NCBI GenBank assembly: GCA_041500685.1 | Contig: JBGQMP010000001.1 | Span: forward strand, 1 to 24,035 | From: Thermodesulfovibrionia bacterium | GTDB taxonomy: Bacteria; Nitrospirota; Thermodesulfovibrionia; Thermodesulfovibrionales; SM23-35 | Direction of reading: 5' to 3' | DNA length: 24,035 bases | Shown here: piece after piece, positions 198 through 24,035 of the stretch | Layout: every line of letters begins with the position of its first letter | Position numbering within the stretch: position 1 is the stretch's first letter | Translations under genes and position numbers: made by a program | Notes under the pieces: model-generated | Database searches by the model: none | Told to the model about the DNA's origin: nothing | Seen by the model: the letters and a program-made list of their open reading frames with translations, nothing else

Positions 198-227
198 TTG
201 ACAATTTTTTTTGCCCTGTGATATGCT
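198..227 (+). promoter_or_regulatory. sigma70-type promoter of the atp operon
   Basis: Exact TTGACA at 198-203, 18-bp spacer, TATGCT at 222-227 preceded by extended -10 TG (219-220); 40 nt upstream of the b' start. Confidence 0.7.
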
Positions 228-267
228 TTTCCATCTTTTTCAATTCCTTCAAAAGAGAGGTCGGGGT

Positions 268-1798: not shown

Positions 1799-1802
1799 AA
1801 TT

Positions 1803-3320: not shown

Positions 3321-3364
3321 ATAAGCGGAAGTAAGAAATGGGAAATAAGAGGCATGGAGGATAG

Positions 3365-4249
3365 ATGGCGACCTTAAGAGATATAAGAAAGAAAATAAAG
3401 GCCATCCAGAGCACGAAGAAGATTACAAAGGCAATGAAGATGGTGGCCGCTGCAAAGTTGAGGAAGGTCCAGGACAGGATGCTGAATTTCAGACCCTATG
3501 CGACAAGCATGCAAACGGTTCTTTCGAGCCTCGCAAGGGTCGCAGAGCGGGAGGTGCACCCTCTCCTCGCTGTCAGGCCAAGAAAGACTGTGGAGGTTCT
3601 TGTGATGACCTCTGACAGGGGTCTCTGTGGGGCCTTCAATACAAATATCCTGAGGAGTGCAACTCAGTATATTGATTCCTTAAAGAGAGAAGGTTTTGAA
3701 TTAAGTTTCAGCGCGGTAGGAAGGAAGGCCCGTGATTACTTTCGCCGGAGAAATTTAACAACGAGGAAATCCTGGGTCGGGCTCTCCGGAAGGATAACTT
3801 ATACTAATGCTCAGGAGATTGCAACGGATATCATAGAGAGTTATACAAACGAGACCATAGATGAGGTTGTTCTCATTTATAATGAATTTAAGTCCCTTGC
3901 TACACAAAAACTTTCTATTGTGAAGCTTCTTCCCATAGTTGCGTTGGAGACTGAGGGGGCTGCTGCTGAACATGCCCAGCTTCCAGGTGATTTCCTCTAT
4001 GAACCTTCAGCAGAGAGTCTCTTCGAAAGATTATTACCTAAATATATTGAGATTCAGATTTACAGGGCCCTCCTTGAGTCTTCTGCTGCCGAAGAGGCTG
4101 CAAGGATGAGTGCTATGGAGAATGCCTCAAAGAACTGTGATGACCTCATAACCAAGACAACACTTATCGCCAACAAGTTGAGACAGGCAGGCATAACAAA
4201 AGACCTGATGGACATTGTCGGTGGTGTCGAGGCACTGAAAGCGAAGTAA
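3365..4249 (+). CDS. atpG: ATP synthase F1 subunit gamma
   Basis: KITKAMKMVAAAKL, SDRGLCGAFN, ARMSAMENA, RQAGIT motifs; GGAGG SD. Confidence 0.99.
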   Translation: MATLRDIRKKIKAIQSTKKITKAMKMVAAAKLRKVQDRMLNFRPYATSMQTVLSSLARVAEREVHPLLAVRPRKTVEVLVMTSDRGLCGAFNTNILRSATQYIDSLKREGFELSFSAVGRKARDYFRRRNLTTRKSWVGLSGRITYTNAQEIATDIIESYTNETIDEVVLIYNEFKSLATQKLSIVKLLPIVALETEGAAAEHAQLPGDFLYEPSAESLFERLLPKYIEIQIYRALLESSAAEEAARMSAMENASKNCDDLITKTTLIANKLRQAGITKDLMDIVGGVEALKAK

Positions 4250-4266
4250 TAAAGTATTTTTAATAG

Positions 4267-5724
<1,458 letters not shown>

Positions 5725-5780
5725 AGAAAGTTAAAAGTTAAGAAGTGAAAAGTTAAAAGTGAAGATAGGGGAAGGAATAG

Positions 5781-6191
5781 ATGGAGAATAAATTAAGACT
5801 TGAAATCGTAACACCCTATGGCCTTATTTTAGGTGATGAGGTAGATGAAGTTACTGCTGCTGGAAGTGAGGGTGAGTTTGGGGTTCTCCCGGGACATGTC
5901 CACTTTATTACCACACTCAAGATAGGAATGCTTAACTATAAGAAAGGCAACGAAGTGAGGTATGTCTTTGTGAGTAGTGGATATGCAGAGGTTGGGCCTG
6001 ATAAGGTTACTGTCCTGGCAGATAGCGCTGAAAAGTCAGAAGATATCGATGTGGAAAGGGCTAAGGCAGCAATAAAGCGGGCAGAAGAGAGACTCAAAAA
6101 GATGGAAGAGATTGACTTTGCCAGGGCAGAATCAGCTCTTGAAAGGGCAGCAATAAGGACACAGGTAGCAGGAAGAAAAGCTGTCAGGTAA
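5781..6191 (+). CDS. atpC: ATP synthase F1 subunit epsilon
   Basis: [33 protein letters not shown] motifs; last gene of the operon. Confidence 0.98.
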
Positions 6192-8072: not shown

Positions 8073-8951
8073 GTGGAACTGTTCAAGAGTTTCCTTATAT
8101 ATCTGTCAGTTGAGAAGGGACTCTCAAAAAATACCATTGATTCCTATTCAATAGACCTCAGGAAATTTCAGGACTTTCTCTTATCGAAGGATAAAGGGTT
8201 TGCCGCATTCTCGAGGGCCGATATTATCGATTTTATCGAAAGGCTGAGAGATGAGGGTTACTCCATATCAAGCATCTGTAGGTATATATCTTCTATAAGG
8301 GGTTTATGCAAATACCTTCTTATTGAAAATGTCATAAAAGATGATCCCTCAGAAAACCTGCAGGCACCAAGGAGGTGGGAAAGACTCCCAAAGGCGCTGA
8401 GTATCTCTGATATCAGATCTTTTCTTGAATTGAGCTCATCTGTTAACAAACCAACCATGATAAGAGACTTTGTAATGCTTGAACTTCTCTACTCCTCAGG
8501 TCTCCGCGTCAGCGAGCTAGTCTTCCTTAAGCTTGAGGCTCTTCATTTAGAGGCGGGGTTTTTAAGGGTTTTGGGAAAGGGTTCAAAGGAAAGGATTGTG
8601 CCTGTCAATACGAGGGCTATAGGAAAGCTAAAGATGTATCTTAATCAGCAGAGACAAGAGATCCTCAAGAAGAGGCAGTCTTCATATCTTTTTGTTACAG
8701 GGAGAGGGAAGCCTATGACAAGACAGCGTTTCTGGCAGACGATAAAGGCCTTGGGCAGGAAGACTGGGATTGAGATTTCACCACATACGCTCAGGCATTC
8801 CTTCGCAACACACCTTCTTGAGGGTGGAGCAGACCTCAGGTCAGTCCAGAAGATGCTCGGTCACTCTGATATATCAACGACCCAGATTTATACAAAAGTA
8901 ACTGCAGAAAGAATAAAGAAAGTCTATGCACGACACCATCCGAGGGCCTGA
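8073..8951 (+). CDS. xerD: Site-specific tyrosine recombinase XerD
   Basis: VEKGLSKNTIDSYSID N-terminus, ELLYSSGLRVSEL (Arg), GKGSKERIVP, HTLRHSFATHLL (HxxR), QKMLGHSDISTTQIYT (His, Tyr); GTG start. Confidence 0.93.
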   Translation: MELFKSFLIYLSVEKGLSKNTIDSYSIDLRKFQDFLLSKDKGFAAFSRADIIDFIERLRDEGYSISSICRYISSIRGLCKYLLIENVIKDDPSENLQAPRRWERLPKALSISDIRSFLELSSSVNKPTMIRDFVMLELLYSSGLRVSELVFLKLEALHLEAGFLRVLGKGSKERIVPVNTRAIGKLKMYLNQQRQEILKKRQSSYLFVTGRGKPMTRQRFWQTIKALGRKTGIEISPHTLRHSFATHLLEGGADLRSVQKMLGHSDISTTQIYTKVTAERIKKVYARHHPRA

Positions 8952-11568: not shown

Positions 11569-12588
11569 TCATTTTTCATTTAGCTTTAGGTCATAATCAG
11601 CATACTTGATATCTTCTTCATAGTCGGGATTTTTAATATCAACACTATAAATTTCCATATAGCTGGCTCCGGCATCAAGTCCTTTATTTATGGCTTCACG
11701 CAAGGTGCCACCAAATCTTTCTTTATCATCCGTATCACAAAGCATCTGAAAACCTACGTTTGCATAATTGGCATAGTCTTGAACTATCTGGTAAAGAGGA
11801 AAAGATTTGCCTATTTTGGCTGATAACCAATCGCCCTGGATACATAACCTGTCACCTAACTTCCCGTAGCCATAGCTCAGTATCTCCTGTACTACCCTCA
11901 AACTATCGCCAAAAGATACCGGCTGGGCAATGTTAATGGCCAGAGGAGTATCCGGAAATGCTTCTGCATAGGCATCAATTACGGTCATCCATGCCCAAAT
12001 GAGTTTCTCTTCTGTATAGCCCAATGATGACCAGAGTTCCTGATTATCCTTTTCCGGAAGATGCATTTCTCCATACTTACACGGTCCTGTCATATGAACC
12101 ACGACTATATCAGGATCATTGCTATACCGAATGCCTAATTTGCTGATGAATTGAACCCATTCCGTCAAATAAACCTCATCCCATGGAAGAGGCATGGAGA
12201 TTGTTTTGTCTTTATCTGTAAAATAATATCTGTTAGCCCCTTCAGCATAGACCCAGTCCGGAGTGAATTTACCGGCCCAGACCCTGATCATTATCTTTTT
12301 GCCGTGTCTGTGAGCTTTTCTAATGTTTCTATCAAGATATCTCCAATCATAAATACCTTTCTGAGGCTCTATTTTCTTCCAGGGCACACGCAGTGACAAA
12401 CCAGTCACTTCTTGGTTGGAAAGCACCTTTGATGAGAAAGATTTTCCCAACGCGTATACCCCGCCTATTTCCCCTGATTGTGCGAACGCAGGAGTAAGCA
12501 GGGAAAAGCAAATCAACAAATGAACTATCACTCCGAAAAACACAGTTGCTAAAGTTCGCATATGCAATCTGAAATAGAAGATGAACAT
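11569..12588 (-). CDS. Secreted glycoside-hydrolase-like TIM-barrel protein (GH-A clan/GH42-like), paralog A
   Basis: Signal peptide ending AFA|QS; GLSLRVPWKKIEPQKGIYDWRYLD, TPDWV, PLPWDEVYL, GEMHLP, GFQML, YMEIY. Start may instead be ATG at 12561. Confidence 0.72.
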   Translation of the reverse strand: MFIFYFRLHMRTLATVFFGVIVHLLICFSLLTPAFAQSGEIGGVYALGKSFSSKVLSNQEVTGLSLRVPWKKIEPQKGIYDWRYLDRNIRKAHRHGKKIMIRVWAGKFTPDWVYAEGANRYYFTDKDKTISMPLPWDEVYLTEWVQFISKLGIRYSNDPDIVVVHMTGPCKYGEMHLPEKDNQELWSSLGYTEEKLIWAWMTVIDAYAEAFPDTPLAINIAQPVSFGDSLRVVQEILSYGYGKLGDRLCIQGDWLSAKIGKSFPLYQIVQDYANYANVGFQMLCDTDDKERFGGTLREAINKGLDAGASYMEIYSVDIKNPDYEEDIKYADYDLKLNEK

Positions 12589-12721
12589 GCCTAATATTAG
12601 GAAGATTCAGACAAAAGAGCGGTGACTTAAAACACATTGTCAAATTTTTCTGAGAATGTCAGAGGGCTATCAAGGGGGGAATAGTGTAAAGAACACCCAC
12701 TGGCGTTTTGCTACTCACCAG

Positions 12722-12904
12722 TGTGCTGTCTGTAGCACTTCTTTAGAGTGTCATTGCGAGGGACAAAGTCCCGAAGCAATCTCACTACGAGATTGCTCGC
12801 GGAGTTTATCCTGAGTAGGAACTACAAGATTCTTCACTTAGTTCAGAATGACTCACGAAGGGCTTGGAATGACCCAGCAGTAAAGTTATTTAGCTGACAG
12901 GACA
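12722..12904. mobile_element. MITE-like cassette A carrying a nested REP doublet
   Basis: Ends GTGTGCTGTC (12721-12730) / GACAGGACAC (12896-12905), 9/10 IR; internal TGTCATTGCGAG...AAGCAATCTC and GAGATTGC...GGAATGAC (12749-12873). Confidence 0.55.
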
Positions 12905-12907
12905 CCG

Positions 12908-13060
12908 TGTAGTGTATCCATGAACGCTTTACAATCTTGTCATTCCGGACTTGATCCGGCCTACGACTCATGGAGAATCCAGTTTTTTTGCTTTTGGATT
13001 CCCGTTTTCACGGGAATGACAGGAGGAGCGTTATTGTAAAGATGAGTTAGATACACAACA
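12908..13060. mobile_element. MITE-like cassette B carrying a REP doublet
   Basis: Ends GTGTAGTGTATC (12907-12918) / GATACACAACAC (13050-13061), 11/12 IR; internal TGTCATTCCGGACTTGATCCGG...TGGATTCCCGTTTTCACGGGAATGACA (12938-13021). Confidence 0.55.
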
Positions 13061-13077
13061 CCAGAAAATTCAAAGTT

Positions 13078-13106
13078 TTGATTATATCTTTGGAAAGGGG
13101 TAAAAT
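13078..13106 (+). promoter_or_regulatory. sigma70-type promoter of hydrolase-like paralog B
   Basis: TTGATT (13078-13083), 17 bp, TAAAAT (13101-13106); AGGAAGG SD before ATG 13125. Confidence 0.55.
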
Positions 13107-13124
13107 ATTTTCAGGAAGGTTAAA

Positions 13125-14126
13125 ATGACATTTATCAGGAAGATCGCCATCTTGGTTTTCTTTGTCATCATTGTTTTTCCAAGAACTTCCCCGGCAGATT
13201 CATTTTCTGTAAAAGGCGTTTACAGTCTCATGAGAGGAATGGATGCCGTAGATCCGTCTGTAGTGAAACTGCCTTTCTTGGCAGGGGTAAGCATCAGGGC
13301 TCCCTGGCGAGCTATTGAGCCTAAGGAAGGGAAAATGGGATGGGATTATTTGGACAATGCCCTCAGTGAGGTTAAAAAGGCGAATAAAAAGGCAATGTTC
13401 AGGATCCTTCCGGGAATTAATTCTCCAGCCTGGGCATACAAAAAGGGAATCCCCTCTGTAGAAATTAAAGATGTAAACCAATATCATAAAACCTACGGTC
13501 AAAAGCAAAAAATTCCCTTGCCCTGGGATGAAACCTATCTGAATGAATGGGTAAAATTTGTTTCTCAACTCGGAGCAAGATATAACTCACATGATGAATT
13601 GGTATTAGTCCATATCGCGGGGCCGACGTATCACTCCGCTGAAATGCACCTGCCGAAGAAAGCAAATGCGGAACTTATGGTGAAGGCAGGTTATACAAAG
13701 GAGAAGATAGTCACTGCATGGGAAAAGGTTATAGACGCTTATGCAAAAGCTTTTCCTGATAAAGACCTTGCCTTAAATGTAGCCATCCCGCTTAGGGAGG
13801 ATGGAGCGATGGAAGAGATAATACAATATGGAATCTCAAAATTAGGGAAACGCTTGTGCATACAGGGGAACTGGTTAAGCGCTAAGACACTTGGATCTTT
13901 CCATCCATACAGGGTGATACGCGAGTATGGGAAGAAATATGGTGTAACCGTTGGATTCCAGATGTTGGACTCTGCTAAAGACAAACCTGAACGGCAGGGC
14001 TCACTCGAGACATCTATAGAACAGGGGCTGAAAGCCGGAGCGCACTATTTTGAGATATATCAGGCAGACATCAAAGAGCAAAAGAACAAGGCATTATTTG
14101 ATAAACTTGATAAAAAGCTGAGATAG
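13125..14126 (+). CDS. Secreted glycoside-hydrolase-like TIM-barrel protein (GH-A clan/GH42-like), paralog B
   Basis: Signal peptide MTFIRKIAILVFFVIIVFPRTSPA; GVSIRAPWRAIEPKEGKMGWDYLD, SPAWA, PLPWDETYL, AEMHLP, GFQML, YFEIY, colinear with paralog A. Confidence 0.75.
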   Translation: MTFIRKIAILVFFVIIVFPRTSPADSFSVKGVYSLMRGMDAVDPSVVKLPFLAGVSIRAPWRAIEPKEGKMGWDYLDNALSEVKKANKKAMFRILPGINSPAWAYKKGIPSVEIKDVNQYHKTYGQKQKIPLPWDETYLNEWVKFVSQLGARYNSHDELVLVHIAGPTYHSAEMHLPKKANAELMVKAGYTKEKIVTAWEKVIDAYAKAFPDKDLALNVAIPLREDGAMEEIIQYGISKLGKRLCIQGNWLSAKTLGSFHPYRVIREYGKKYGVTVGFQMLDSAKDKPERQGSLETSIEQGLKAGAHYFEIYQADIKEQKNKALFDKLDKKLR

Positions 14127-14156
14127 ATTACTATATTCTTCAGAATTCTTCAGACT

Positions 14157-14299
14157 TACTAAGGAGTTCATAAGTAAGGGCACGTAGTATGTCATTCCCG
14201 CTTGTCGGGAATCTTTCTTAAAGCACCAGAAGGATTGCGGACAAGCCGCAATGACAGAAATTAGTAGAGAATGTGGTTTTACTTTTGGTCTTATTAGTA
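14157..14299. mobile_element. MITE-like cassette with TA-starting TIRs carrying a REP doublet
   Basis: TIR 14157-14177 vs 14279-14299 (16/21); internal TGTCATTCCCGCTTGTCGGGAATC (from 14190) and GGATTGCGGACAAGCCGCAATGACA (14232-14256). Confidence 0.55.
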
Positions 14300-14348
14300 T
14301 CTGTGGGCAAATACCACATATGCCCTTTCCAGACAGCTCTCATATCGT

Positions 14349-14373
14349 TGTCATTCCGGCTTGACCGGAATCC
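14349..14373 (+). repeat. TGTC-tagged REP-like hairpin overlapping the GIY-YIG stop codon
   Basis: TGTC-ATTCCGG-CTTGA-CCGGAAT-CC. Confidence 0.9.
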
Positions 14374-14661
14374 TTCCGAGAATATCTTCATATAAATCCC
14401 TCAGGTCAGGATTATTCTTCCTGATAAGTTCTATCCTCTCCTGCTTGCTCATATTCTTTATCTGTCCCTTATAATCGCACTGAGACTGTTCTAACAAAAC
14501 TCAAAATGTACAAGTCTGTGCAAATAATATCTCGCTGTAAAGCACCGAGGGTTAAGATTGTTCTTATGCTCATAGACTCTTCGTACCAGATCATCTGTCA
14601 TCCCCACATAGAGGGTCGGCCTGGCATTAGCCATGATGTACACCGCAAAGTGTTTTTTCAT
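14351..14661 (-). pseudogene. Small standalone GIY-YIG nuclease (about 104 aa), inactivated
   Basis: Hand translation: [64 protein letters not shown][frameshift]QIKNMSKQERIELIRKNNPDLRDLYEDILGRIPVKPE*. In-frame TAG at 14491-14493; frameshift at 14465/14464. Confidence 0.9.
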
Positions 14662-14679
14662 TATAAAGCCGCATCAATC

Positions 14680-14783
14680 TGTCGTGCCGGCGCTTGTCCT
14701 CGCTTTGCCAAGGATCGGTCCAGCATTCTTCTTCAGAGAGATTCCGGTCAACCCGGAATGATACCCGACAAGCAAGAATGACA
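14680..14783. repeat. Degenerate nested REP cluster upstream of the GIY-YIG pseudogene
   Basis: GATTCCGGTCAACCCGGAATGA (14740-14761) is a near reverse complement of the 14349 hairpin; TACCCGACAAGCAAGAATGACA (14762-14783) and TGTCGTGCCGG (14680) are further decayed units. Confidence 0.75.
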
Positions 14784-14816
14784 AGAATTTCCACACAAAA
14801 CCGGAAGAACCGATTA

Positions 14817-17800
14817 CTATTTTTCCCATAGATAGATCTTTGATCTATAGCTTTCATAAACAACTTTAAAAGTTTGTTTTATGTAATCCACGGTTTTCCT
14901 GTCGTTTTCTTTTGGTAACTCGTAGTCAGGGTCAGACACAAACCAGACTCTATTATGTTTTGCTGTTATTTCTTTCAGTTCGTCCGGATTTTTTATGATA
15001 GGAGTACCAATGTATTTATCAATGAGACCCGGATATCCGCCCTCGCTTGTATCGAAAAACATTACTAACCTCAGGTAGGTTGAAATAGCGTAATCTGCTT
15101 TAATTTTATCATAATATTCCAGAGGAAATGATCTTACCATAATAAAGATATCTCCTTTCTTCATGTTTTCTTTTATGTATTTGGAAGTAGACTTAAAGTC
15201 GGTCCAGGTGACATCTTCTCGAACGTGATCTGGCGGGACAGAAGGGGTTTTAGAAAGCAAATAGAGTTTCAGAAAGGTGGTATTGGATGCGAGGAATATT
15301 GTCATCGATAACGCTATCAATGACAAAGAGGTTGAGAATCTGACGACGGTACTTTTTTCATGAACCATGCTTCTGAAAGAATTCATGAATATAATAATTA
15401 TAGCGGAGCCGGTGAGTATCAAGAATGGTTCAAGATTATAGATATAACGAGGAGCATTCACAGGCAAAAGATTGGTAAGACAGAGAGCGGGGACAAAAAG
15501 TATGATGTAAAGGTATCTTAAGGGTTTGTATTTTAAGAGCAGAAAAATACCCGCAATCAGGAACATAGTGAATAACCAGTTATTTTCAGTGAAGAAAAAA
15601 TGATCGATGTAGAAATAGGGGTCATACATCGGATCAAGGAAAAATAGTTTCGGAAGAGAAATATCTGCAATTTTTCCATTAATGAGGAGATAGGCATTTA
15701 AATACAGAATCCTCCTGCTCTGTTGTATGAATACAGTTAAGAATATTAAAGCAAAACTGGCCCATGCATGTTTGTTCCTGAGCCACGAGAGGTCAGATCC
15801 CTTATGGACTACTATTGCCGCCAGCATGGCAACAAGGAGAAAACCGGAGCCTTCCCAGCTTAAATACATCAGACTAAAGGATAGAGCTGTTAAATAAAGG
15901 AATCTTTTCTTTAAGGGGTTTGCATCTATTGCCTTGTATAGGAATAGAATAGTAAGACTTGTCAGGAACTGTGTCAGTTGAGGGTAAAAAACGGATTGGC
16001 TCCAGATTATGCAGGAGGGCAGAAAGGTTTGTACAGCAGCAGCTAATAATCCTGTTAATCTGTTAAATAGGGTTTTACCGAGGACATAAAGGAGCAATAT
16101 CTCAAGTGTTCCCCAGAATGCTGAATGTAATCGTCCTGCGTAGTCGTTAAATCCAAAGAGGCGCACAGGGACAGAAATAGAGTAAGGCAAAAGTTCGTAT
16201 GTAGTCATCGGTTTTACATAGGGGCCGATCACTTTCGAGGGGAATCCTCTATCCAAAAGGCCCTGCGTATATTCCATCATTGAAACCTCATCGTGATTCA
16301 GGGATAAATACGTAAGCCCATGTATTCTCATGAGGAAACCTACAATTATCAAGCATATTACAAGAAATGAAAAAAGAAGATTTGCTGATTTTCTGGACTC
16401 TCTGAGTACATCTTTGATCTTATATCTCTTTATCCTTGTACTTATGAACTCAGCAGATCGAAGAAGAAATAAGATTAAGAGTGAAACAAGAACGTACTTC
16501 AACTGGAAGGGGAATGAGCTATCAAATCTGACATCAAATTTTAACAGATAGATAAAGAATATAAAAAGTAAGGAAGGCATGTGTAATACACCATCTGTAA
16601 ATAGACGGTCTGACAAATTAGCATTGTCAATCTTGGCATATAAAAAGGCAATGATGAACCAGATGCACAACATGACAGTTATGACAGAAATTATGAAAGT
16701 AAGGAATTTTAAAAACTCTTGTACAATATGTGCAAAAGTAAAATCCATTTTCTTAATGCTTTTTGAGAGAACACCCCAGGGTTGGGATGGATATTCTGAA
16801 AGCAGTAGCGGTACTTTCCATGCAGACGAGTTAATATCCGGAATGTATTTTTCCGGAATTATATTTGATATAGTCCTCCATGTTGTATCAGCCGTTAAAG
16901 TGATTACTGAATTGCGATCATGGATATAACCCTCAACAAATAGACCCGGGGCAGTATCCCCGACTGTGACGCCTACGCCAATGGTATTTTGCCCGGAATG
17001 TAACAATAGGGTTAGATCATATATATCCAGACTTCCTTCAAAGAGATTGCCTTTTTTTACCGGTGTGCCATTTATGGTCAAGTCATAGATCGAACTTCCT
17101 GCGATTCCAACGATAGCATCCTTAACGGGTGACCTCAATGTAAATGATTTCAGGAAATATGCGGACCTTACAGTTGGTTCAGGATGCCACATCCAACATC
17201 CCGAAAGAGGCTTACCAAGTATGTAAGGTGCTATTCCCGACGTATACACCGGATATGAAGTAGATGTTCCCTCTATTTGTGCCTGCTTCCATCTTGAATG
17301 GTCGAAGTTGTGGAAGTACCATAGAATACCGTCCTGACGACCCTGTGTTTCTTCTACAGAAGAGACCTTCCATGTCCCATCTGTTACAAAAATATGTTCC
17401 CTCCCTGTAAGGTCGGTATATCCTCCCTTGAGAAGGAGTCTGGGGGGGCCTGGATAGCTCATTCGATAAACATATGTTGCAACTACATTCTTACCATGCC
17501 TTATCTTACCTGTTACATTATGGATGTCAGACAGATTCACTGACAAAAAGGTATCTACAGCAATTTTCTCCTCATTTACAAAAAGCTCTGCATTGTCAGT
17601 TGCAGCTATGGAAATCCATGCATCGGCGACATTATCAGGGATAAAGATTTCTTTGACAAAGTAGCCGTTTGGCGTTTTGTCGCCGGTGCTTATCCACTGA
17701 GCTCCGTTAAAATCGAGACTGTAACGATGCGGAGGATATTCAAAAATTATATGCCATAAAATATAACCGATGGAGAAACCGAGTAGAACCACCGGGATTA

Positions 17801-17828
17801 TCCCTAATAAGAGCTTCTTTTTCTGCAT
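14817..17828 (-). CDS. GT-C fold (ArnT/PMT-like, GT39/83-type) membrane glycosyltransferase fused to two N-terminal sugar-binding-like beta-sandwich domains
   Basis: N-terminal TM; two repeats of W-x-W...YF-K-F...a-l-VNG...l--G-N-i-v...D-tW; many TMs; LRIHGLTYLSLNHDE acidic motif (D513/E514), GRLHSAFWG, GKTLFNRLTGLLAAA; soluble C-terminal domain. Confidence 0.75.
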   Translation of the reverse strand: MQKKKLLLGIIPVVLLGFSIGYILWHIIFEYPPHRYSLDFNGAQWISTGDKTPNGYFVKEIFIPDNVADAWISIAATDNAELFVNEEKIAVDTFLSVNLSDIHNVTGKIRHGKNVVATYVYRMSYPGPPRLLLKGGYTDLTGREHIFVTDGTWKVSSVEETQGRQDGILWYFHNFDHSRWKQAQIEGTSTSYPVYTSGIAPYILGKPLSGCWMWHPEPTVRSAYFLKSFTLRSPVKDAIVGIAGSSIYDLTINGTPVKKGNLFEGSLDIYDLTLLLHSGQNTIGVGVTVGDTAPGLFVEGYIHDRNSVITLTADTTWRTISNIIPEKYIPDINSSAWKVPLLLSEYPSQPWGVLSKSIKKMDFTFAHIVQEFLKFLTFIISVITVMLCIWFIIAFLYAKIDNANLSDRLFTDGVLHMPSLLFIFFIYLLKFDVRFDSSFPFQLKYVLVSLLILFLLRSAEFISTRIKRYKIKDVLRESRKSANLLFSFLVICLIIVGFLMRIHGLTYLSLNHDEVSMMEYTQGLLDRGFPSKVIGPYVKPMTTYELLPYSISVPVRLFGFNDYAGRLHSAFWGTLEILLLYVLGKTLFNRLTGLLAAAVQTFLPSCIIWSQSVFYPQLTQFLTSLTILFLYKAIDANPLKKRFLYLTALSFSLMYLSWEGSGFLLVAMLAAIVVHKGSDLSWLRNKHAWASFALIFLTVFIQQSRRILYLNAYLLINGKIADISLPKLFFLDPMYDPYFYIDHFFFTENNWLFTMFLIAGIFLLLKYKPLRYLYIILFVPALCLTNLLPVNAPRYIYNLEPFLILTGSAIIIIFMNSFRSMVHEKSTVVRFSTSLSLIALSMTIFLASNTTFLKLYLLSKTPSVPPDHVREDVTWTDFKSTSKYIKENMKKGDIFIMVRSFPLEYYDKIKADYAISTYLRLVMFFDTSEGGYPGLIDKYIGTPIIKNPDELKEITAKHNRVWFVSDPDYELPKENDRKTVDYIKQTFKVVYESYRSKIYLWEK

Positions 17829-17837
17829 CTTCTGTGG

Positions 17838-19130
17838 CTATCTCCCTAATACGCTCATAAAAGCCCTTTGATTTCCCTCCATGTTCAGCCGCAGAGAGTT
17901 CAGATAATACACACGCGCTAAGCCATAATTTTTCGTCCTGTAGTATGAGTCGGCAATATTAGAACTCACATTCGCCTCCATTATTTCATCCCCGGATAGC
18001 TTTAAAAACTGAAGCCCTGCCATTATAGATTCTTCATATGCGCTTATGTCGTAATAAGCCCTGCTCAGGTAATAATATGCCTGAACCTGAGATGGGTCTG
18101 TCTCAAGAGCTTTTTTCCATGATTCGATGGCCGATGCAAACATTCCCTTTTTATATTCTAAGAGACCGAAGCTTACATAAGCCCAGGAGATAAGACTATT
18201 ACCGACGGTTTTGGAGATGGATGGCTCGATAAGTTGTGCATTTTTTAAAAAGAAAAGAGCCATGGGAAAGTTTCCCTCTCCGATAAAAATGTCAGCCCTA
18301 TAAAGATAATAATCTGCTTTATCTGTCCTTCCCATAAAGAAATATGCTTTGCCAACATTGGTATGAAAATTATTGGCATAGGCAATATTGTAATCCAATC
18401 TTTTTGCAAGTTCATATTGCTCTATTGCCTTGTTATACATGCCTGTAGCCAAATAATAATCTCCCTTGTTCCTGTGATATTCTGCAGCTATGTACGGAGG
18501 CAGAGCAACTGACAAATAAAACATGATGAATATAAGAAAGAGAAAAAATGAAAATTTTTTGATATTTCTGATTGTTCTAAACTTAAGAAAGGCGACTAAT
18601 TGTAATATGCTGCCGAGGATTGCCAAATACCAGCCGAAGGTGGCAAAATGAAAGGTGGCATAAAACCTATCCAGGATTGTATCCACTGCAATAGAATCCT
18701 CAAAGGTCGGCGATATCCCGAAATTAGGGGGCAGGTACTTGTTGAAAGTCAATATACTTGCTTCCTGCTGGTTGAGATCATTTATGGCAATAATCCTTTT
18801 AGAATCAAACAGGCAAAAAGTGAGGAAAAAGTTCAAAGATAGCATCAGACCAACTATCCCTGTTATAACACTTACCCACGTGAATCGTCTAAATAGGGCT
18901 ATAAAAGAGAACAACCCTGCAAGAAAGCATAGTGAGCCATAGGAGATTACAAGTGGTAAATTGTCCTTTATCTGTATCTTATTGCCCCTGATCCATCTCA
19001 TTACAGGTTCGTCAATCCAGCCCAGGAAGGCGCTTGCCATCAAAAATAATGCGCCCAGAATTATTAGTGTTTTAACATGGAATAATTTACCTAATATAGT
19101 TATAACCTTGTTTATCACTGCTTTGGTCAC
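17838..19130 (-). CDS. Polytopic membrane protein with C-terminal tetratricopeptide repeats
   Basis: About 5 TM segments then TPR-like units (KGDYYLATGMYNKAIEQYELA; FGLLEYKKGMFASAIESWKKALETDPSQVQAYYYL). GTG start uncertain (see finding). Confidence 0.75.
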   Translation of the reverse strand: MTKAVINKVITILGKLFHVKTLIILGALFLMASAFLGWIDEPVMRWIRGNKIQIKDNLPLVISYGSLCFLAGLFSFIALFRRFTWVSVITGIVGLMLSLNFFLTFCLFDSKRIIAINDLNQQEASILTFNKYLPPNFGISPTFEDSIAVDTILDRFYATFHFATFGWYLAILGSILQLVAFLKFRTIRNIKKFSFFLFLIFIMFYLSVALPPYIAAEYHRNKGDYYLATGMYNKAIEQYELAKRLDYNIAYANNFHTNVGKAYFFMGRTDKADYYLYRADIFIGEGNFPMALFFLKNAQLIEPSISKTVGNSLISWAYVSFGLLEYKKGMFASAIESWKKALETDPSQVQAYYYLSRAYYDISAYEESIMAGLQFLKLSGDEIMEANVSSNIADSYYRTKNYGLARVYYLNSLRLNMEGNQRAFMSVLGR

Positions 19131-19345
19131 TTTTTTGTTTCATTACCTACTTTAATATAACAAAATCCATGCCAAAATCTTCAATCAAGCAAAAGAATAA
19201 AGAAAAGTTGAAGAAAATACCGTAATTACAAAGAGTTACACAGTGTAAGTCTGAAGTGAAATCTTTATGCTTTTGGTAGGTAGTTATCTATTCTATACGC
19301 GAAATATGGATCTTCTGCATTTAAGTGACAAGAAATGTTGAATCA

Positions 19346-20815
19346 TTACTCTGTGGCTTTTGTGGAAGGGGCTTTTCTCATGAACCGCATGCTTTCTTTA
19401 ATCGTATCCAGATCACTCTTTGAGAGTGTCTTGAGAATAATGTTTGACACAATATAACAGAGCAGGCTGGCAAGGACACCCGATACCATCCAATACACAG
19501 AGGTTTGTTTAAATTGGTCAAGAACAGCCCACATAAATATGCCTGACACAACAGGTTTCCATGATGCCCTGACAAACGAAATATTTTTGTCCAGGGTTTT
19601 AACAAAGTATATGGATGTGCCGAAAAGCGATAGTTCAGCAAGGAGCGTACCTATACATGCTCCAATGAAATCAAACCTCGGAATCAGGACCAGATCAAGT
19701 ATCACATTTATCGCAAGGCTTGCAATGGAACTTATGGTAAATAACCTTTGTTTGCCGAGGGCAGAAAATATGTATATAAATTGAGCAGTCGGAAATAAAA
19801 ATATCAGGGTAAAGCTCAGTATCCGGAGAGCGATGTAAGAATTTATAAATTCATTTCCGTAGACCAGAAAGATGATACTGTAAGAGAGTGTTAAGAGGAT
19901 AACGGTGAGAGGAATGCTTACAATAAACAAGAACTTCAAATTTCTCTCATAGGCTTGAAATAGTTCCCTCACCGAGGTTCTTGCTAATCTTGAGAAGAAG
20001 GGGAAGAGGGGTATCGCCAGAGTAAGAGCCAGCATGTTAATGGCATTAATAATCTTGTATGGGGCACTAAAAAGGCCGACAGATGTTGCGGTACCGATTG
20101 CGGAGAGTATCAGAATATCAACCTGCCATGAAATCTTGCGAAGTACGCTGGCAATGCCTATCGGAACTGCTTCAGAAACAAGATACCACCATTGCTTTAT
20201 GTTCACAGTCATTTTTGGCCTGTGATATCTGTAACTGACAATTATGTAATAAAAAAACCATAAAGAAATATTGGAGACAAAGTACGATAATGCAATTTCC
20301 ACAAGCCCGAGCCTGGATGTAATGACAAGGATTGTAAGGCTGAGGAGGATGACCTTGTGAAGTACGAAACCCATGGCATTAAACTCCAGCTCCTCCATTG
20401 CCCTAAAGATAGAGTTGTATCCCATTGCATGTACACCTGCAAGGACTGCTGCGCCCATAATATATGTCGCATTCTTAATAGAATGTTCTGTGTTTATAAT
20501 ATTTATTGTCACAAAAATTAATGCGAAGACGATTATCGACAGTATCCATACGAGTGATTTTGTAACGTCTATCAAAGATTGAAGATTTTCTTTATCGACA
20601 GCAATTTCTCTTATCATTATATTGCCCAGGCCGGATTCGGCAACCAACTGGAAAAGTCCTACAAATGCAATTACAAAGGAGTAATGTCCGAAGCCTATGG
20701 ATCCAAGATAGCGTGCTATTAAAATGGTGACAGCGGAATTTATTACAAAGCCAATCAGTTGAGATGATAGCAGCAGGGTTATATTTTTTGCTATGCGCTG
20801 TGATTGTTTCATCAC
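19346..20815 (-). CDS. Wzx/RfbX-like polysaccharide flippase (MOP superfamily)
   Basis: RIAKNITLLLSSQ, ARYLGSIGFGHYSF, GLGNIMIREIA, DILILS...VGLFSAPYK, NVILDLVLIPRFDFIGACIGT; many TMs; ATGA overlap with the TolC stop. Confidence 0.88.
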   Translation of the reverse strand: MMKQSQRIAKNITLLLSSQLIGFVINSAVTILIARYLGSIGFGHYSFVIAFVGLFQLVAESGLGNIMIREIAVDKENLQSLIDVTKSLVWILSIIVFALIFVTINIINTEHSIKNATYIMGAAVLAGVHAMGYNSIFRAMEELEFNAMGFVLHKVILLSLTILVITSRLGLVEIALSYFVSNISLWFFYYIIVSYRYHRPKMTVNIKQWWYLVSEAVPIGIASVLRKISWQVDILILSAIGTATSVGLFSAPYKIINAINMLALTLAIPLFPFFSRLARTSVRELFQAYERNLKFLFIVSIPLTVILLTLSYSIIFLVYGNEFINSYIALRILSFTLIFLFPTAQFIYIFSALGKQRLFTISSIASLAINVILDLVLIPRFDFIGACIGTLLAELSLFGTSIYFVKTLDKNISFVRASWKPVVSGIFMWAVLDQFKQTSVYWMVSGVLASLLCYIVSNIILKTLSKSDLDTIKESMRFMRKAPSTKATE

Positions 20816-22641
20816 GGGAATGAGTACGTAAGCTTGCTTCCTGTTGCTTTACTTAATTCCAGATATGCATTTCTTAAGTTGTATTTCGCCTGGGAAAGGG
20901 CTTTTTGTTGCGCATACAAAGTATATTCGGCTTCTAAAAGAGAGGATAAGGGAGTAAGATTCTGTCCAAATTGTGCTTTCATCAGTCTGACATTTTCCCT
21001 GGATTGCTCTATCATCTTTTCGTTTAAAGTAATCTCGGCCTTCGTATTTTCTATATTTGTAAACGCCTCGATGACTTCTTGCGCTATATCGGCCTTTATT
21101 GACTGGAGGCGTTTTTCCTCTTCTGTCACCTTGGCTCCTTGACTCATGACTTTTGATTTGATAACATCAAAATCGAATATCGGGACACTGAGTTGCAAAG
21201 AAGCCTCCCATAATGAATTAAGACGGGACCCATAGTCGTTCGCTAAAGCATATGTTGAAATCAAATCAATGTTTGGATATTTCTGACTTTTAGCCTGTCG
21301 CTCTTGTTCCTTAACAACAGTTATTTGCAATTCCTGTGCCTTGATCTCGTGACGGCTTAAAAGGGCAGTCTCAATCAGTTCTTCCAGAGGCGGGAGAGGG
21401 GGTAGAGTAAAATCTTCTACCGAAAGAGGTATTCCTTTCATTGGTTCTAAACCCATCTTTGTAGAAAGTTCAGCTGCAAATAGCTTTGATGAATTTCTTG
21501 CGGTTGTCAGTTCTTTTTCTCCGGATGCAAGCTTTACTTCAGACATGAGGAGGTCATTTTTTGAAATGAGACTTTCATTGTATTTCGAAAGGGCTATGGT
21601 ATGAACATACTTCAGGTACTTAACATGTTCTTCAGCAGCCCCGCTTTCTTCCTTATTCTTAAGCACGTTTAAAAAAGTTCTTCCTATGCCATAGGTTAAT
21701 TCGTTTTTTTTCGCCTCATACATGCTTTTATCTATGAGGATCTGATCAGATGCTATGTTTAGTGAGGGGGCATTTCTGGCAAACAATACCCCTTCTCTAA
21801 GAATGGGAACGTTCAGTGAAGGTGAAGCTGAGATATATTGTCCTATGACATTCTTACTCCGGAGTCCCTGTTCTGTAATGCCTCCGAGTATAGCGAAGGG
21901 AGAGATTGGCTTTCCGGCGAGATAGCCTGTGGAAACATTCAGATCAAGCTGGGGGAAGAATAGTCCAGTCTGGGAATCGTAGTGATATGTCGACACCTTG
22001 ATTTTAGCCTCAGATGACTGCAGATCAGGGTTATTCTGGATAGCGTAATCTATACATCTTTGAAGGGACCATAGGTCAACAGGGCTGGCAGAGATTGTGC
22101 GATCTTCTTTCCGGGAATCATTTGATACTTCCTTCATCGGTTTCCCGGAAGACTCCGTTTTAACTTGTAGAGCGGGTTTCAAATAAACTTCTTGTTTTAC
22201 TTCATCAGCCTTCGCAGGGGTTAAAGACTTTTCCCCGGTTCCTGAAATTTTAGCAGGCATGGTTCTGTCATACTGTCTGATTATCCTTTTGTCTTCAATA
22301 TAATCTTTCAGTATAAAAGCACCTGGGGATAATGATTCAATCATCCTTGAGACGTTTCTTGTGGTTGCCATGCTTTTGAACTTACCAAACCTCACAGTAT
22401 AATATTTTTCACCCTTTTCTATCCTGAGATTCGAGAGCTCTTTCCTGTTAAGTTTTTGGGCGAGATAATCAAACAGCTCATGTGCGCCTTCAAGTCTAAT
22501 AAAGCTTCCTGCCTGAATGGTATAATATTTTTTGGCCACGTAGGAATAACCGTTATCAATAATAATAAGAAATACGATCAGGCAAGGCAGGATGAATATC
22601 GTTAGGAATTTAAGTATAATTTTTTCTGCTGACAGCCGCAT
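20812..22641 (-). CDS. TolC-family outer-membrane efflux protein with N-terminal SPOR domain
   Basis: N-terminal hydrophobic segment; YYTIQAGSF...YYTVRFGKF SPOR-like segment (22306-22527); SLQRCIDYAIQNNPDL, FFPQLDL, YPNIDL, LSVPIFD, LLEAE...AKYNLRNAYLELSKATG OEP motifs. Confidence 0.85.
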   Translation of the reverse strand: MRLSAEKIILKFLTIFILPCLIVFLIIIDNGYSYVAKKYYTIQAGSFIRLEGAHELFDYLAQKLNRKELSNLRIEKGEKYYTVRFGKFKSMATTRNVSRMIESLSPGAFILKDYIEDKRIIRQYDRTMPAKISGTGEKSLTPAKADEVKQEVYLKPALQVKTESSGKPMKEVSNDSRKEDRTISASPVDLWSLQRCIDYAIQNNPDLQSSEAKIKVSTYHYDSQTGLFFPQLDLNVSTGYLAGKPISPFAILGGITEQGLRSKNVIGQYISASPSLNVPILREGVLFARNAPSLNIASDQILIDKSMYEAKKNELTYGIGRTFLNVLKNKEESGAAEEHVKYLKYVHTIALSKYNESLISKNDLLMSEVKLASGEKELTTARNSSKLFAAELSTKMGLEPMKGIPLSVEDFTLPPLPPLEELIETALLSRHEIKAQELQITVVKEQERQAKSQKYPNIDLISTYALANDYGSRLNSLWEASLQLSVPIFDFDVIKSKVMSQGAKVTEEEKRLQSIKADIAQEVIEAFTNIENTKAEITLNEKMIEQSRENVRLMKAQFGQNLTPLSSLLEAEYTLYAQQKALSQAKYNLRNAYLELSKATGSKLTYSFP

Positions 22642-22746
22642 TCTTACATTTTCTCAATTCATATAGCTACTTCATTCCCCGATACTATTTAAATCTCTTT
22701 AATTCTTGATACGAATACAGACGAGCATGTTGAACCTAAAACATCT

Positions 22747-23862
22747 TCACGGCTTTCCCTCCATAACATTAACCCTGTCACCATCCTTTAAAAACTGAAT
22801 CCCTGCAAAGACAACATTATCTCCCTCTTTTAACCCTCCCAAGATCTCTGTCAATCCCCCTGCGGAAATGCCTATTTGTGCCTGTTTGATATGAGCGATA
22901 GAGTTAGAATCAACAATAAAAACTGTTGCATTCTCACCGACAGGATTAATTATGGAGATGGACGGGGCAACCAGAGCTTTCTTATGATAAATTATTCTCG
23001 CAAATCCCGTCAGGCCCGGAGTTAATTTAAGATTTTTATTCAGAATTTTCATAAAAGCATTAAATGTTCTTGTTTTAGGATCAGTTTGCGGATCAATTTT
23101 TACTATCTCGCCTTTGAACACATCATTCGGAAAGGAGTCAAAATGAACCTCCCCTTCCTGTTTTAAATGGATATAGGAGATTTTTTCTTCAGGAACTTTG
23201 GCCACCGTAAAAATATTATCAATAACCCCTAATAAGAACATCTGTTCATTTAACTTAGGGGTTTCACCTGTGTTCACAGTTTTTTCAAGAACAATGCCTG
23301 TAATAGGACTCCTTACCGTAGTAAAATCCATATCCTGAGTTGCTTTTCCCAATTGTCGCACTGCGGTTGAGTACTCATATTCTGCATCTTTGACCTTTTC
23401 GTCAGCTTTTTCCAAATCTACCTTTGCAATAAGATTCTGATTATAAAGATTTAATAACCTCTGGTAGTTTAGCTTACTATAATCAAGACCGGTTTTTGTT
23501 CTATTGAAACTGTCCTTTGCCTGGTCCACAATAGCTTTCATTAATTTTTGGTCGAATTCTAAAAGTACCTGTCCCTTTTGGACCCTTTCCCCTATATTGA
23601 CCTTAACAGATATGACAGGCTGTTCTATTCTCGCCGTGAGCGCTGCTTTTCCAAATTCCTGAGTCTGTCCGCTGGCTCCTATGACATAATCTATTGTTTT
23701 AATCTCAACAGGGTTTACACTGACTGGCATTTTGCCTTTAACAAGTCTTGCCTTTGTCGGGTCGGTTCTTATCATATGCAATACAACTTGTATCGCGACA
23801 AAGATAAATCCTGCCAATAAAAAAACAATTATGAGAACAAAAAGCTTTTTCCCTCTGCTCAA
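22747..23862 (-). CDS. Efflux periplasmic adaptor (membrane fusion protein, HlyD/RND-MFP family)
   Basis: N-terminal TM; VKVNIGERVQKGQVL and VRSPITGIV lipoyl halves, IDPQTDPKTRTF, LTPGL, GLKEGDNVV. TTG at 23862 with AAGAGAAG SD preferred over ATG 23934, which would overlap the upstream GT4 by 61 nt. Confidence 0.85.
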   Translation of the reverse strand: MSRGKKLFVLIIVFLLAGFIFVAIQVVLHMIRTDPTKARLVKGKMPVSVNPVEIKTIDYVIGASGQTQEFGKAALTARIEQPVISVKVNIGERVQKGQVLLEFDQKLMKAIVDQAKDSFNRTKTGLDYSKLNYQRLLNLYNQNLIAKVDLEKADEKVKDAEYEYSTAVRQLGKATQDMDFTTVRSPITGIVLEKTVNTGETPKLNEQMFLLGVIDNIFTVAKVPEEKISYIHLKQEGEVHFDSFPNDVFKGEIVKIDPQTDPKTRTFNAFMKILNKNLKLTPGLTGFARIIYHKKALVAPSISIINPVGENATVFIVDSNSIAHIKQAQIGISAGGLTEILGGLKEGDNVVFAGIQFLKDGDRVNVMEGKP

Positions 23863-23873
23863 TATGTCTTCTC

Positions 23874-24035
23874 TTAGCTGTAATGCAAAACTTTTTGGTA
23901 TATTCCCTCGATTTTTTTTGCTAATGTCGGCCAATCAAAGGTCGATTTGACTGTCATCTTCGCATTATCCCCAAGTTTTTTTGCTAGTACCTGATTCTGA
24001 ATAAGTAATACTATTCCTTTTCCCAATTCTTTCCA
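23874..24035 (-). CDS. Glycosyltransferase family 4 (GT-B), C-terminal 53 aa only; gene runs off the window
   Basis: Hand translation WKELGKGIVLLIQNQVLAKKLGDNAKMTVKSTFDWPTLAKKIEGIYQKVLHYS* matches the typical GT4 C-terminus (lg.na...v...fdw..ia..ie.iY). Not in the ORF track. Confidence 0.75.
   Translation of the reverse strand, partial: WKELGKGIVLLIQNQVLAKKLGDNAKMTVKSTFDWPTLAKKIEGIYQKVLHYS

Follow-up and report, generated by a model that had tools for sequence, protein, structure and literature searches.

A conserved glycan-assembly gene cassette with a dedicated MFP-TolC pair and no encoded pump, a possible export pathway in a Thermodesulfovibrionia bacterium

The window analyzed in this study is the whole of contig C1 (JBGQMP010000001.1, assembly GCA_041500685.1), a stretch of 24,035 bp from a Thermodesulfovibrionia bacterium whose genome (G000) was assembled to 1.78 Mb in 351 contigs and is 84% complete. 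It carries a cassette of genes on the minus strand, running from position 24035 down to 14817, which encode the tail of a GT4 glycosyltransferase (GT), a membrane fusion protein (MFP) acting as periplasmic adaptor, a TolC-type outer-membrane channel headed by a SPOR domain (SPOR-TolC), a Wzx-like flippase of the MOP family, a transmembrane protein with tetratricopeptide repeats (TM-TPR) and a large GT-C glycosyltransferase. We propose that the flippase, the GT-C and the TM-TPR protein form an assembly line that would pass a glycan or glycolipid, once decorated, to a dedicated MFP-TolC duct working without a pump, a reading to which we assign a probability of roughly 0.55. Whether this arrangement also represents a new class of envelope machine, in which an adaptor of the resistance-nodulation-division (RND)/MacB type and a dedicated TolC are fed by a complex of MOP flippase, lectin-armed GT-C and five-helix TPR protein with no pump, is a more tentative matter, and we put it at somewhat less than even odds. 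Throughout the text, L numbers denote related loci, G numbers genomes, C numbers contigs, and A2, A3 and A5 alignments.

An earlier note on this DNA had described these six genes as co-oriented and tightly packed beside two genes for secreted hydrolase-like proteins. All six were confirmed on the minus strand, and the adjoining pair was found to encode GH42-like proteins with signal peptides. The packing is indeed tight at two junctions, with 9 bp between the TM-TPR and GT-C genes and an overlap between TolC and Wzx, but it is looser at two others, where 105 bp separate MFP from TolC and 215 bp separate Wzx from TPR. The TolC/Wzx junction, CCGTGATGA, overlaps by GTGA (4 nt) or TGATG (1 nt), and the ATGA coupling described before was not borne out. 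In an independent wetland assembly, one 5.2-kb contig spans positions 19647-24035 with ~96.5% identity and no indel and extends beyond the window end, so that neither the order of the genes nor the reading frame of SPOR-TolC can be put down to an assembly artefact. The GT4 gene is represented only by its last 53 codons because the window is a whole contig that ends inside this gene; the encoded tail is 46-55% identical to the C-termini of the full GT4 genes located directly upstream of the MFP gene in L013 and L015.

The same gene set recurred in other genomes. The contigs of the nearest TolC relatives carry one to three genes for Phosphodiest (AlkP-type) proteins, followed by GT4, MFP, TolC, Wzx, TM-TPR, a GT-C of ~1000 aa and a GH42-like gene. 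The set was kept on a contig whose TolC is merely 33% identical, on Nitrospirota contigs with GT-C identities of 31-41%, and in a Chthoniobacterales genome with a GT-C identity of 28%; the lowest GT-C identity among the related loci was 26-28%. The loci came from Nitrospirota, from Verrucomicrobiota (the Chthoniobacterales genome) and from many soil contigs of unassigned lineage. A metagenome scan with the GT-C alignment yielded 80 further loci, and hidden Markov models of the cassette families were run on the six-frame open reading frames (ORFs) of all loci. Among the 26 well-flanked loci, in which the GT-C gene has 6 kb or more of upstream and 2.5 kb or more of downstream sequence, Wzx and TM-TPR were found in every one (26/26 each), the MFP in 25/26, TolC in 24/26, a GH-like gene in 23/26, Phosphodiest in 21/26, GT4 in 20/26 and an LpxL/PatA-like acyltransferase in 8/26. 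At 70% GT-C identity the loci formed 36 clusters. A locus of 9 kb or more was available for 26 of these clusters, and the MFP and TolC were each present in 21 of the 26, the shortfalls being mostly contigs cut beside the GT-C gene. The GT-C family itself is large, with at least 234 clusters at 50% identity matching at E<=1e-30.

The order of the genes has been reshuffled repeatedly. At least three orders were observed across lineages: PDE-GT4-MFP-TolC-Wzx-TPR-GTC for the window, MFP-Wzx-TPR-GTC-TolC in a large soil group, and PDE-PDE-MFP-TPR-GTC-TolC-Wzx-acyltransferase-GT4 in another group (PDE, Phosphodiest; GTC, GT-C). Because the co-location survives this rearrangement, the cassette can be regarded as a functional unit, and its conservation in dozens of loci shows that the arrangement is far beyond chance. 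Synteny in other genomes, which the earlier note had set as a test of its proposal, was thus recovered, with the order shuffled. Three lineages (a JGI contig, L049 and L050) have no Wzx in the cassette, and in L049 TolC is likewise encoded elsewhere; MFP, TM-TPR and GT-C are adjacent in all three and so remain together even where TolC or Wzx sits in another place.

Database and profile searches did not reveal a pump. In agreement with the earlier note, Wzy, Wzc and Wza domains were not found in any of the window ORFs scanned. In addition, no energized transporter of the RND, ATP-binding cassette (ABC), major facilitator superfamily (MFS) or PET type was present in the window, in the annotated neighbourhoods or among the non-core ORFs of diverse cassettes. 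Sulfotransferases (6-8), YdjM (3), hexapeptide/acetyltransferases and methyltransferases headed a Pfam tally of 38 such ORFs, and none of its 25 commonest families was of the ABC, RND, Wza, Wzc or Wzy kind; an initiating phosphoglycosyltransferase of the WbaP/WecA type was seen neither among these 25 families nor in the window. The largest unassigned cassette ORFs encode autotransporters, FG-GAP/ASPIC proteins, beta-propellers, a GH129-like protein and a DegT aminotransferase. A membrane-embedded processive GT2 synthase was absent from the window and from all related loci save L045, which has a GT2-PilZ neighbour. The possibility that a complete RND/ABC pump and a canonical Wzy/Wza set lie just upstream, raised by the earlier note against its own proposal, was not borne out in the orthologous loci, where the upstream DNA carries Phosphodiest genes and then unrelated genes, examples being those for acyl-CoA dehydrogenase, an AMP-binding enzyme, an arginase-family protein, aconitase or secreted repeat proteins.

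A missing pump might nevertheless be borrowed. Under this explanation, the MFP-TolC pair would work with an unlinked RND, MacB-type ABC or MFS pump, its location beside the glycan genes would reflect co-regulation, and its cargo would be something other than a glycan, or a glycan using the energy of that pump. The sequence of the MFP, which is that of an RND/MacB-type four-domain adaptor, is compatible with this explanation, and carriers of the cassette do hold RND or MacB genes elsewhere in their genomes (an RND on C72 of G000 and several in G072, G156 and G302). However, the RND on C72 adjoins its own TolC, and the remaining TolC paralogues of G000 sit in loci of their own. In G072, G156 and G302, every RND, MacB, Wza and Wzz match falls on a contig other than the cassette contigs. 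Moreover, a pump partner that is never linked in ~25 shuffled cassettes would be unusual for tripartite systems. We therefore consider a borrowed pump improbable.

The properties of the two duct proteins are in better agreement with a dedicated pair. The MFP scored 179 bits with TIGR01730 (cut-off 94.9) and 90.7 bits with HlyD_D23, and it consists of a single N-terminal transmembrane (TM) helix (residues 33-51) followed by hairpin, lipoyl, beta-barrel and membrane-proximal domains. In profile searches against the PDB, the best match was TriAB (199 bits), followed by MexJ, ZneB, MacA and AcrA; the protein belongs to the four-domain RND/MacB type, and its nearest solved relatives all serve pumps with large periplasmic domains. 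In MacA, AcrA and HlyD, the RLS motif (RxxxLxxxxxxS) at the tip of the MFP hairpin contacts TolC, and a change of its serine to alanine in MacA left partial activity (PMC3391258). In 12 cassette MFPs (alignment A2), R159 at this tip is invariant and is followed by L, I or M at position +4 and by S, A, T or P at position +11, with A in the window. The four RND/MacB-type domains together with the invariant hairpin-tip arginine of this RLS-like motif lead us to expect that the cassette MFP would dock on TolC. With the cassette profile, the cassette MFPs of G156 and G302 scored 544 and 536 bits, respectively, versus 131 bits for the next paralogue.

The window TolC is composed of a signal/anchor segment, the SPOR domain (PF05036, 27.9 bits versus a cut-off of 21), a linker of ~80 aa and a full TolC with two OEP repeats (PF02321, 164.6 bits); on TIGR01844 it reached 115 bits, under the cut-off of 225. 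Its closest relatives (50-60% identity) are 440-450 aa long and have a plain signal peptide without SPOR, and a SPOR-type extension was absent from every other cassette TolC scanned, so that this genome alone has one. In G156, a cassette-type TolC (L133:2109-3917, contig C13), whose gene adjoins a Kdo transferase gene away from the cassette, carries an AMIN domain (PF11741, 34.9 bits) at the equivalent N-terminal place. The cassette TolC lineage has thus gained a peptidoglycan-binding head twice independently, SPOR in our genome and AMIN in G156, and these two fusions suggest a fixed, statically anchored conduit that spans the envelope. In a maximum-likelihood tree, 12 non-cassette TolCs from the window's own genome and its relatives grouped in a single clade (support 100/99) that included none of the 23 cassette TolCs, with outgroup sampling limited to Nitrospirota. 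To judge from their sequences, the cassette MFP and TolC are specialized orthologous lineages distinct from the housekeeping paralogues. We also noted that the Verrucomicrobiota-type MFPs (L047 and L048, alignment A2) have seven residues fewer in each hairpin arm, which is one heptad per helix, and that TolC divergence is greatest in this very group, as if the channel varied together with the length of the adaptor.

Of the inner-membrane proteins, the flippase matched PF01943 with 113.8 bits and PF13440 with 57.7 bits; on the NCBIfam model Wzx_EPS it reached 60 bits, far under the cut-off of 800. The TM-TPR protein is predicted, from hydropathy and the positive-inside rule, to have its N terminus inside, five helices and a periplasmic TPR domain. 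Its TPR part scored 62 bits with TPR_2 and also matched other TPR families, and its structure model has a pLDDT of 86.7. In the membrane domain, a periplasmic loop, LPPNxGxEPTF, is strongly conserved, and Q122, F129, L133, P134 and N136 are invariant (alignment A3). When the model was compared with the PDB and the ESM Atlas using Foldseek, only the TPR part was matched and the five-helix domain found no match at all, while a protein-atlas feature search returned unnamed TPR clusters only. An acyltransferase of the LpxL/PatA-like kind was observed next to the flippase in two of the related loci: in L051 (6824-9367, contig C25 of G072), one ORF of 847 aa fuses it to the Wzx-like flippase, and in L043 the two are adjacent as separate genes.

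The GT-C protein scored 52.3 bits with PMT_2 (PF13231), versus a cut-off of 26.1, and has rhamnosidase-N/lectin-like domains at its N terminus. Its model (pLDDT 87.8) consists of an N-terminal helix, two beta-sandwich domains, the GT-C module and a periplasmic domain at the C terminus. The lectin-like domains were matched by profile to the Pleurotus (ostreatus) lectin structures 6t0q/6kbj (E 2e-18) and also to rhamnosidase N-domains, and by Foldseek with E 2.5e-16. Sequence searches against the PDB recovered only this lectin-like part, and the GT-C module was placed through the structure model: the best Foldseek matches were the ArnT structures 5EZM (E 4e-9, TM-score by target 0.58) and 5F15, with a range of 0.54-0.58, followed by PglB/STT3 and then by ALG9/12 and Emb/AftA. 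The residues D513-E514, within the motif SLxHDE, are invariant in 20/20 sequences down to 30% identity. These findings illustrate that the GT-C is a bona fide member of the ArnT/PMT type with unusual additions. In line with this, it shares with the ArnT, PMT and Emb-Aft enzymes the PMT_2 domain, the GT-C fold and the Asp-Glu pair of the first loop, and it has periplasmic carbohydrate-binding modules as EmbC and AftD do; it differs from ArnT and PMT in the extra TM helix and the two rhamnosidase-N/fungal-lectin-like beta-sandwich domains ahead of the module, and in being always paired with a separate five-helix TPR protein and an MFP.

A possible source of donors for this enzyme was found on another contig of the same genome. 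Contig C71 (L052, 1-5093) contains a Phosphodiest gene that is truncated where the contig ends, a 252-aa GT2 resembling ArnC/DPM1, a Phosphodiest protein of 424 aa and a PAPS-reductase/CysD-like gene, and from its similarity to L013 it is likely the upstream continuation of the window's own cassette. The C71 GT2 is 65% identical to the copy in L013 and 62% identical to that in L046; among the NCBIfam models it matched ArnC, PpgS and dolichyl-phosphate hexose transferases best, in each case scoring below the cut-off, and it is a candidate polyprenyl-phosphate sugar donor synthase for the GT-C. The Phosphodiest proteins begin straight at the catalytic domain, and since no sequence precedes this domain, they would be cytoplasmic. 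The two secreted GH-like proteins of the window are paralogues, copy b being 52-55% identical to three copies in L015. In 10/10 GH42-like orthologues from several phyla (alignment A5), a glutamine (Q279 of copy a, in GFQ) occupies the strand-7 nucleophile position of clan GH-A, and W134-D135, E310 and D315 are also invariant; the glutamine is, on this alignment, a family trait rather than a sign of decay in the two window copies.

These components could also serve glycosylation that stays bound to the cell. In such a scenario, the GT2, the flippase and the GT-C would constitute an Arn/Gtr/PMT-type system decorating a protein, lipid A/lipopolysaccharide or another envelope molecule, the TPR protein would select the acceptor, and the MFP-TolC pair would remove by-products, export the GH-like enzymes or act as a trans-envelope scaffold. 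The GT-C is indeed nearest to ArnT and to enzymes of the oligosaccharyltransferase/PMT type with the DE motif kept, the small GT2 on C71 matches ArnC, PpgS and dolichyl-phosphate hexose transferases, and neither an initiating phosphoglycosyltransferase nor Wzy was seen in the cassettes. In addition, a TPR protein coupled with a GT-C recalls the eukaryotic TMTC O-mannosyltransferases. However, this scenario leaves unexplained why a specialized MFP and TolC were retained through repeated reordering, as well as the accompanying secreted GH-like enzymes, sulfotransferases and c-di-GMP proteins of the kind found in exopolysaccharide loci, and an MFP or outer-membrane factor (OMF) is not part of the known Arn, Gtr and PMT systems. 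We regard it as unlikely, albeit the most plausible of the alternatives. The narrower suggestion of glycoprotein or S-layer glycosylation in the earlier note obtained no specific support.

Another alternative takes Pel, the product of PelA-G in Pseudomonas aeruginosa, as its template, as the earlier note had done. The GT4, MOP and TM-TPR proteins would then act as PelF, PelG and PelE, polymerizing and translocating a glycan without a lipid carrier, the GT-C would only decorate it, and MFP-TolC would stand in for PelB/PelC. The component types are the same in both systems (GT4, MOP-family membrane protein, TM-TPR and a secreted hydrolase-like accessory), neither an initiating phosphoglycosyltransferase nor Wzy was seen, and c-di-GMP proteins lie beside two cassettes, namely the GT2-PilZ protein in L045 and a REC-PAS-GGDEF-EAL protein in L050. 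Nevertheless, the full-length GT4 of L015 reached only 26.8 bits with the PelF model NF038011, whose cut-off is 100; the MOP protein matched Polysacc_synt/Wzx models only and not PelG; PelD, PelA, PelB and PelC were absent from the window and the cassettes; and the likeness between PelE and the cassette TM-TPR is one of architecture only. Pel, in turn, has no large GT-C. Moreover, the GT4 is lacking in 6/26 well-flanked cassettes and Wzx in three lineages, whereas the GT-C and TM-TPR are always there, which makes the GT-C look like the core enzyme and not an accessory. This explanation is therefore the least probable of the alternatives considered. Of the earlier proposal, the exit through MFP-TolC in place of an outer-membrane polysaccharide export (OPX) protein or a beta-barrel thus survived the synteny and upstream-content tests, on comparative support, and the Pel-like framing was not supported.

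Returning to a pump-less duct fed by the glycan assembly line, we take the domain identities, the GT-C fold and motif, the predicted topologies and the conserved co-location of the set as shown; which proteins touch one another, which way material flows, what the donor is and what kind of product is made are all inferred. The GT4, the Phosphodiest proteins and the ArnC/DPM1-like GT2 would prepare a lipid-linked precursor and donors in the cytoplasm, joined in other lineages by sulfotransferases and LpxL/PatA-like acyltransferases, and the Wzx-like protein would flip both. At the periplasmic face, the GT-C would grip the growing glycan with its two lectin-like domains and extend or finish it using polyprenyl-phosphate sugars, with the TM-TPR protein as a scaffold for this step. 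The MFP, anchored in the inner membrane, would dock on the periplasmic parts of the GT-C and/or the TM-TPR protein and open the dedicated TolC through tip-to-tip contact, and the product would leave by this channel, which in this genome would be tethered to peptidoglycan by its SPOR domain. The secreted GH-A-like proteins may trim or release the product.

The GT-C and the TM-TPR protein both carry large periplasmic parts in the models and topology predictions, and these parts, rather than the flippase, are the likeliest contacts of the MFP. The MFP has a membrane-proximal domain and the flippase has no periplasmic domain, which favours contact with the GT-C and/or the TM-TPR protein, and the flippase is not the best candidate partner because Wzx is missing in the three lineages that keep MFP, TM-TPR and GT-C together. 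A complex prediction of the TM-TPR protein with the MFP (alignments A3 and A2) gave a score of 0.00 and no verdict either way.

Several observations weigh against the duct model. All of its contacts rest on comparison, and since a pump-type MFP is present without an encoded pump, the opening of TolC and the energy for transport are left unexplained. The Pfam tally covers the 25 commonest families, so single pumps in single loci may have been missed. In addition, the window's own genome encodes a canonical pair of Wza and a Wzz-domain polysaccharide co-polymerase (PCP) on contig C3 that might be able to handle this product. A good number of the 80 metagenomic loci are closely related to one another, and the counts therefore overstate their independence, which is better represented by the 36 clusters. 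Between cassette groups, TolC identity is 22%, versus 28-47% for the other parts, and because the cassette TolC is so much more divergent, its replacement by other OMFs is possible. Finally, in G417 a distance of ~20 kb separates the two halves of the cassette, the MFP has 776 aa with ~320 extra coiled-coil hairpin residues (L134:9164-11491, contig C6), and no cassette-type TolC was found in this genome, though other TolCs are present.

Comparison with known systems shows what the cassette shares with each. It resembles the Wzx/Wzy pathway in its Wzx-like MOP flippase, in its cytoplasmic GTs, and in an adaptor across the periplasm and an outer-membrane channel with comparable roles; it differs in that Wzy, Wzc, Wza and the initiating phosphoglycosyltransferase were not seen in it, and MFP and TolC occupy the topological places of PCP and OPX. 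Compared with classical tripartite pumps, the MFP and OMF are present and the transporter is absent. In Anabaena, heterocyst glycolipid reaches the cell surface through the MFP DevB and the TolC homologue HgdD, with DevCA as the energizing ABC transporter. A glycolipid product is also possible for the cassette, given the recurrent acyltransferase and fatty-acid genes, but ABC genes were not seen in the cassettes.

Two systems come closer. In the Xcs system of Thermosynechococcus vulcanus, a cellulose synthase occurs with HlyD-like and TolC-like proteins, and exit through MFP-TolC was proposed (Maeda 2018, via PMC8892547). As far as that account of Xcs goes, a polysaccharide would there too pass through an MFP and a TolC-like channel and not through a TPR/beta-barrel porin or OPX protein, but the inner-membrane partner is a processive, BcsA-like GT2, in place of which the cassette has a MOP flippase, a five-helix TPR protein and a GT-C. 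For the mixed-linkage beta-glucan of Sinorhizobium meliloti, genetic evidence supports the need for the MFP BgsB and TolC, and a tripartite synthesis-export complex, BgsA-BgsB-TolC, was proposed without an RND or ABC pump (PMC13438883, 2026). In that system, BgsA is a c-di-GMP-activated GT2 synthase and TolC is the unlinked housekeeping protein, whereas the cassette encodes a dedicated TolC lineage and its glycosyltransferases are GT4 and GT-C. Polymer export through MFP-TolC is known, and the novelty here lies in inner-membrane machinery of another kind and in a TolC dedicated to it. The literature searched, the coverage of which is incomplete, yielded no description of this gene set, and the cassette could prove to be a separate export pathway.

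Some features of the loci bear on the product. The recurrent sulfotransferases and the PAPS-reductase/CysD-like gene on C71 suggest that it is sulfated, and an acylated or lipid-anchored glycan is suggested by the recurrence of LpxL/PatA-like acyltransferases, one of them fused (L051) and one adjacent (L043) to Wzx, these two arrangements hinting that the flipped substrate is acylated. Near the cassette, some loci also possess genes for a fatty-acyl-AMP ligase, a desaturase, a ketoacyl synthase or beta-oxidation. A matrix polysaccharide would fit the secreted GH-like enzymes, the c-di-GMP neighbours in L045 and L050 and the flanking adhesin-like and glycan-processing proteins.

The catalogued routes by which polysaccharides and glycolipids cross the bacterial outer membrane are few, and the idea of polymer export through TolC is recent and comes from two systems with GT2 synthases. 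If the duct model is true, this idea would extend to quite different inner-membrane machinery with a cassette-encoded TolC of its own, so that it could be tested with a single small set of genes. Should the cassette represent a new class of envelope machine, glycans or glycolipids would have one more general way out of the cell beside the Wzx/Wzy, ABC and synthase routes, spread over several sediment and soil phyla, with TolC pinned to peptidoglycan by SPOR or AMIN in some lineages. The duct model would also give a role to the lectin-GT-C family of ~1000 aa and to the new five-helix/TPR family, both of which are common in soil and sediment metagenomes. In addition, sulfotransferases recur, a hint that uncultured lineages may carry sulfated polymers on their surface.

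The distribution of the cassette among relatives is patchy. A cassette TolC orthologue was found in 0/40 relatives of the genus, family or order, and only 5/401 genomes sampled from the phylum have the GT-C, a pattern that does not support vertical inheritance within the family. The G+C content of the cassette is slightly lower, 0.37-0.40 versus 0.41-0.49. Horizontal acquisition would fit the absence of the cassette from sampled family and order relatives, its lower G+C and the adjoining recombinase and remnants. The window DNA was also found in sediment, wetland and freshwater-sediment metagenomes.

The features of the window are listed in Table 1. Its other side is occupied by an F-type ATP synthase operon, after which come genes for a methyltransferase, a multihaem cytochrome, a XerC/D-type recombinase and a Lon-like protease.

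Table 1. Positions of the cassette genes, their domains and motifs, and other features in the 24,035-bp window
Feature	Position	Strand	Basis or remark
GT4 glycosyltransferase 3' end, 53 codons	23874-24035	-	open-ended ORF at contig end
MFP (periplasmic adaptor)	22747-23934	-	TIGR01730, HlyD_D23
MFP RLS-like hairpin-tip motif, R159-x3-L163-x6-A170	23425-23460	-	alignment A2
SPOR-TolC fusion, 609 aa	20812-22641	-	PF05036 + PF02321
SPOR domain, residues 37-102 of TolC gene	22336-22533	-	PF05036
Wzx-like MOP/PST flippase, 489 aa	19346-20815	-	PF01943, PF13440
TM-TPR gene, whole	17838-19130	-	
TM-TPR five-helix membrane domain, residues 1-211	18498-19130	-	hydropathy, positive-inside
TM-TPR TPR domain, residues 212-430	17838-18497	-	TPR_2; predicted periplasmic
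GT-C gene, whole, 1003 aa	14817-17828	-	PMT_2
GT-C two periplasmic beta-sandwich lectin-like domains, residues 44-360	16749-17699	-	
GT-C module + C-terminal periplasmic domain, residues 365-1003	14817-16736	-	
GT-C invariant D513-E514	16287-16292	-	first periplasmic loop
Secreted GH-A/GH42-like TIM-barrel protein a	13125-14126	+	PF02449 42.5 bits, signal peptide
Secreted GH-A/GH42-like TIM-barrel protein b	11569-12588	-	PF02449 31.7 bits, signal peptide
XerC/D-type recombinase gene	8073-8951		
F-type ATP synthase operon	211-6191		other side of window

Some minor observations complete the description. A patch of repeat and mobile-element remnants adjoins the cassette at 12700-14800, between the GT-C gene and the GH-like pair. 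The locus L046 ('Limnocylindrales'), which contains Wzx, TPR and GT-C without MFP or TolC, was considered as a monoderm control and was dropped because its genome, G417, has at least four OEP proteins; in addition, G417 holds the other half of the cassette, with the 776-aa MFP, ~20 kb away. The neighbours of this MFP gene encode a fatty-acyl-AMP ligase, two desaturases, a P450 and an acyltransferase. Within the otherwise compact gene row of the window, the 215-bp spacer from Wzx to TM-TPR (19131-19345) is AT-rich and may contain an internal promoter or a regulatory element.

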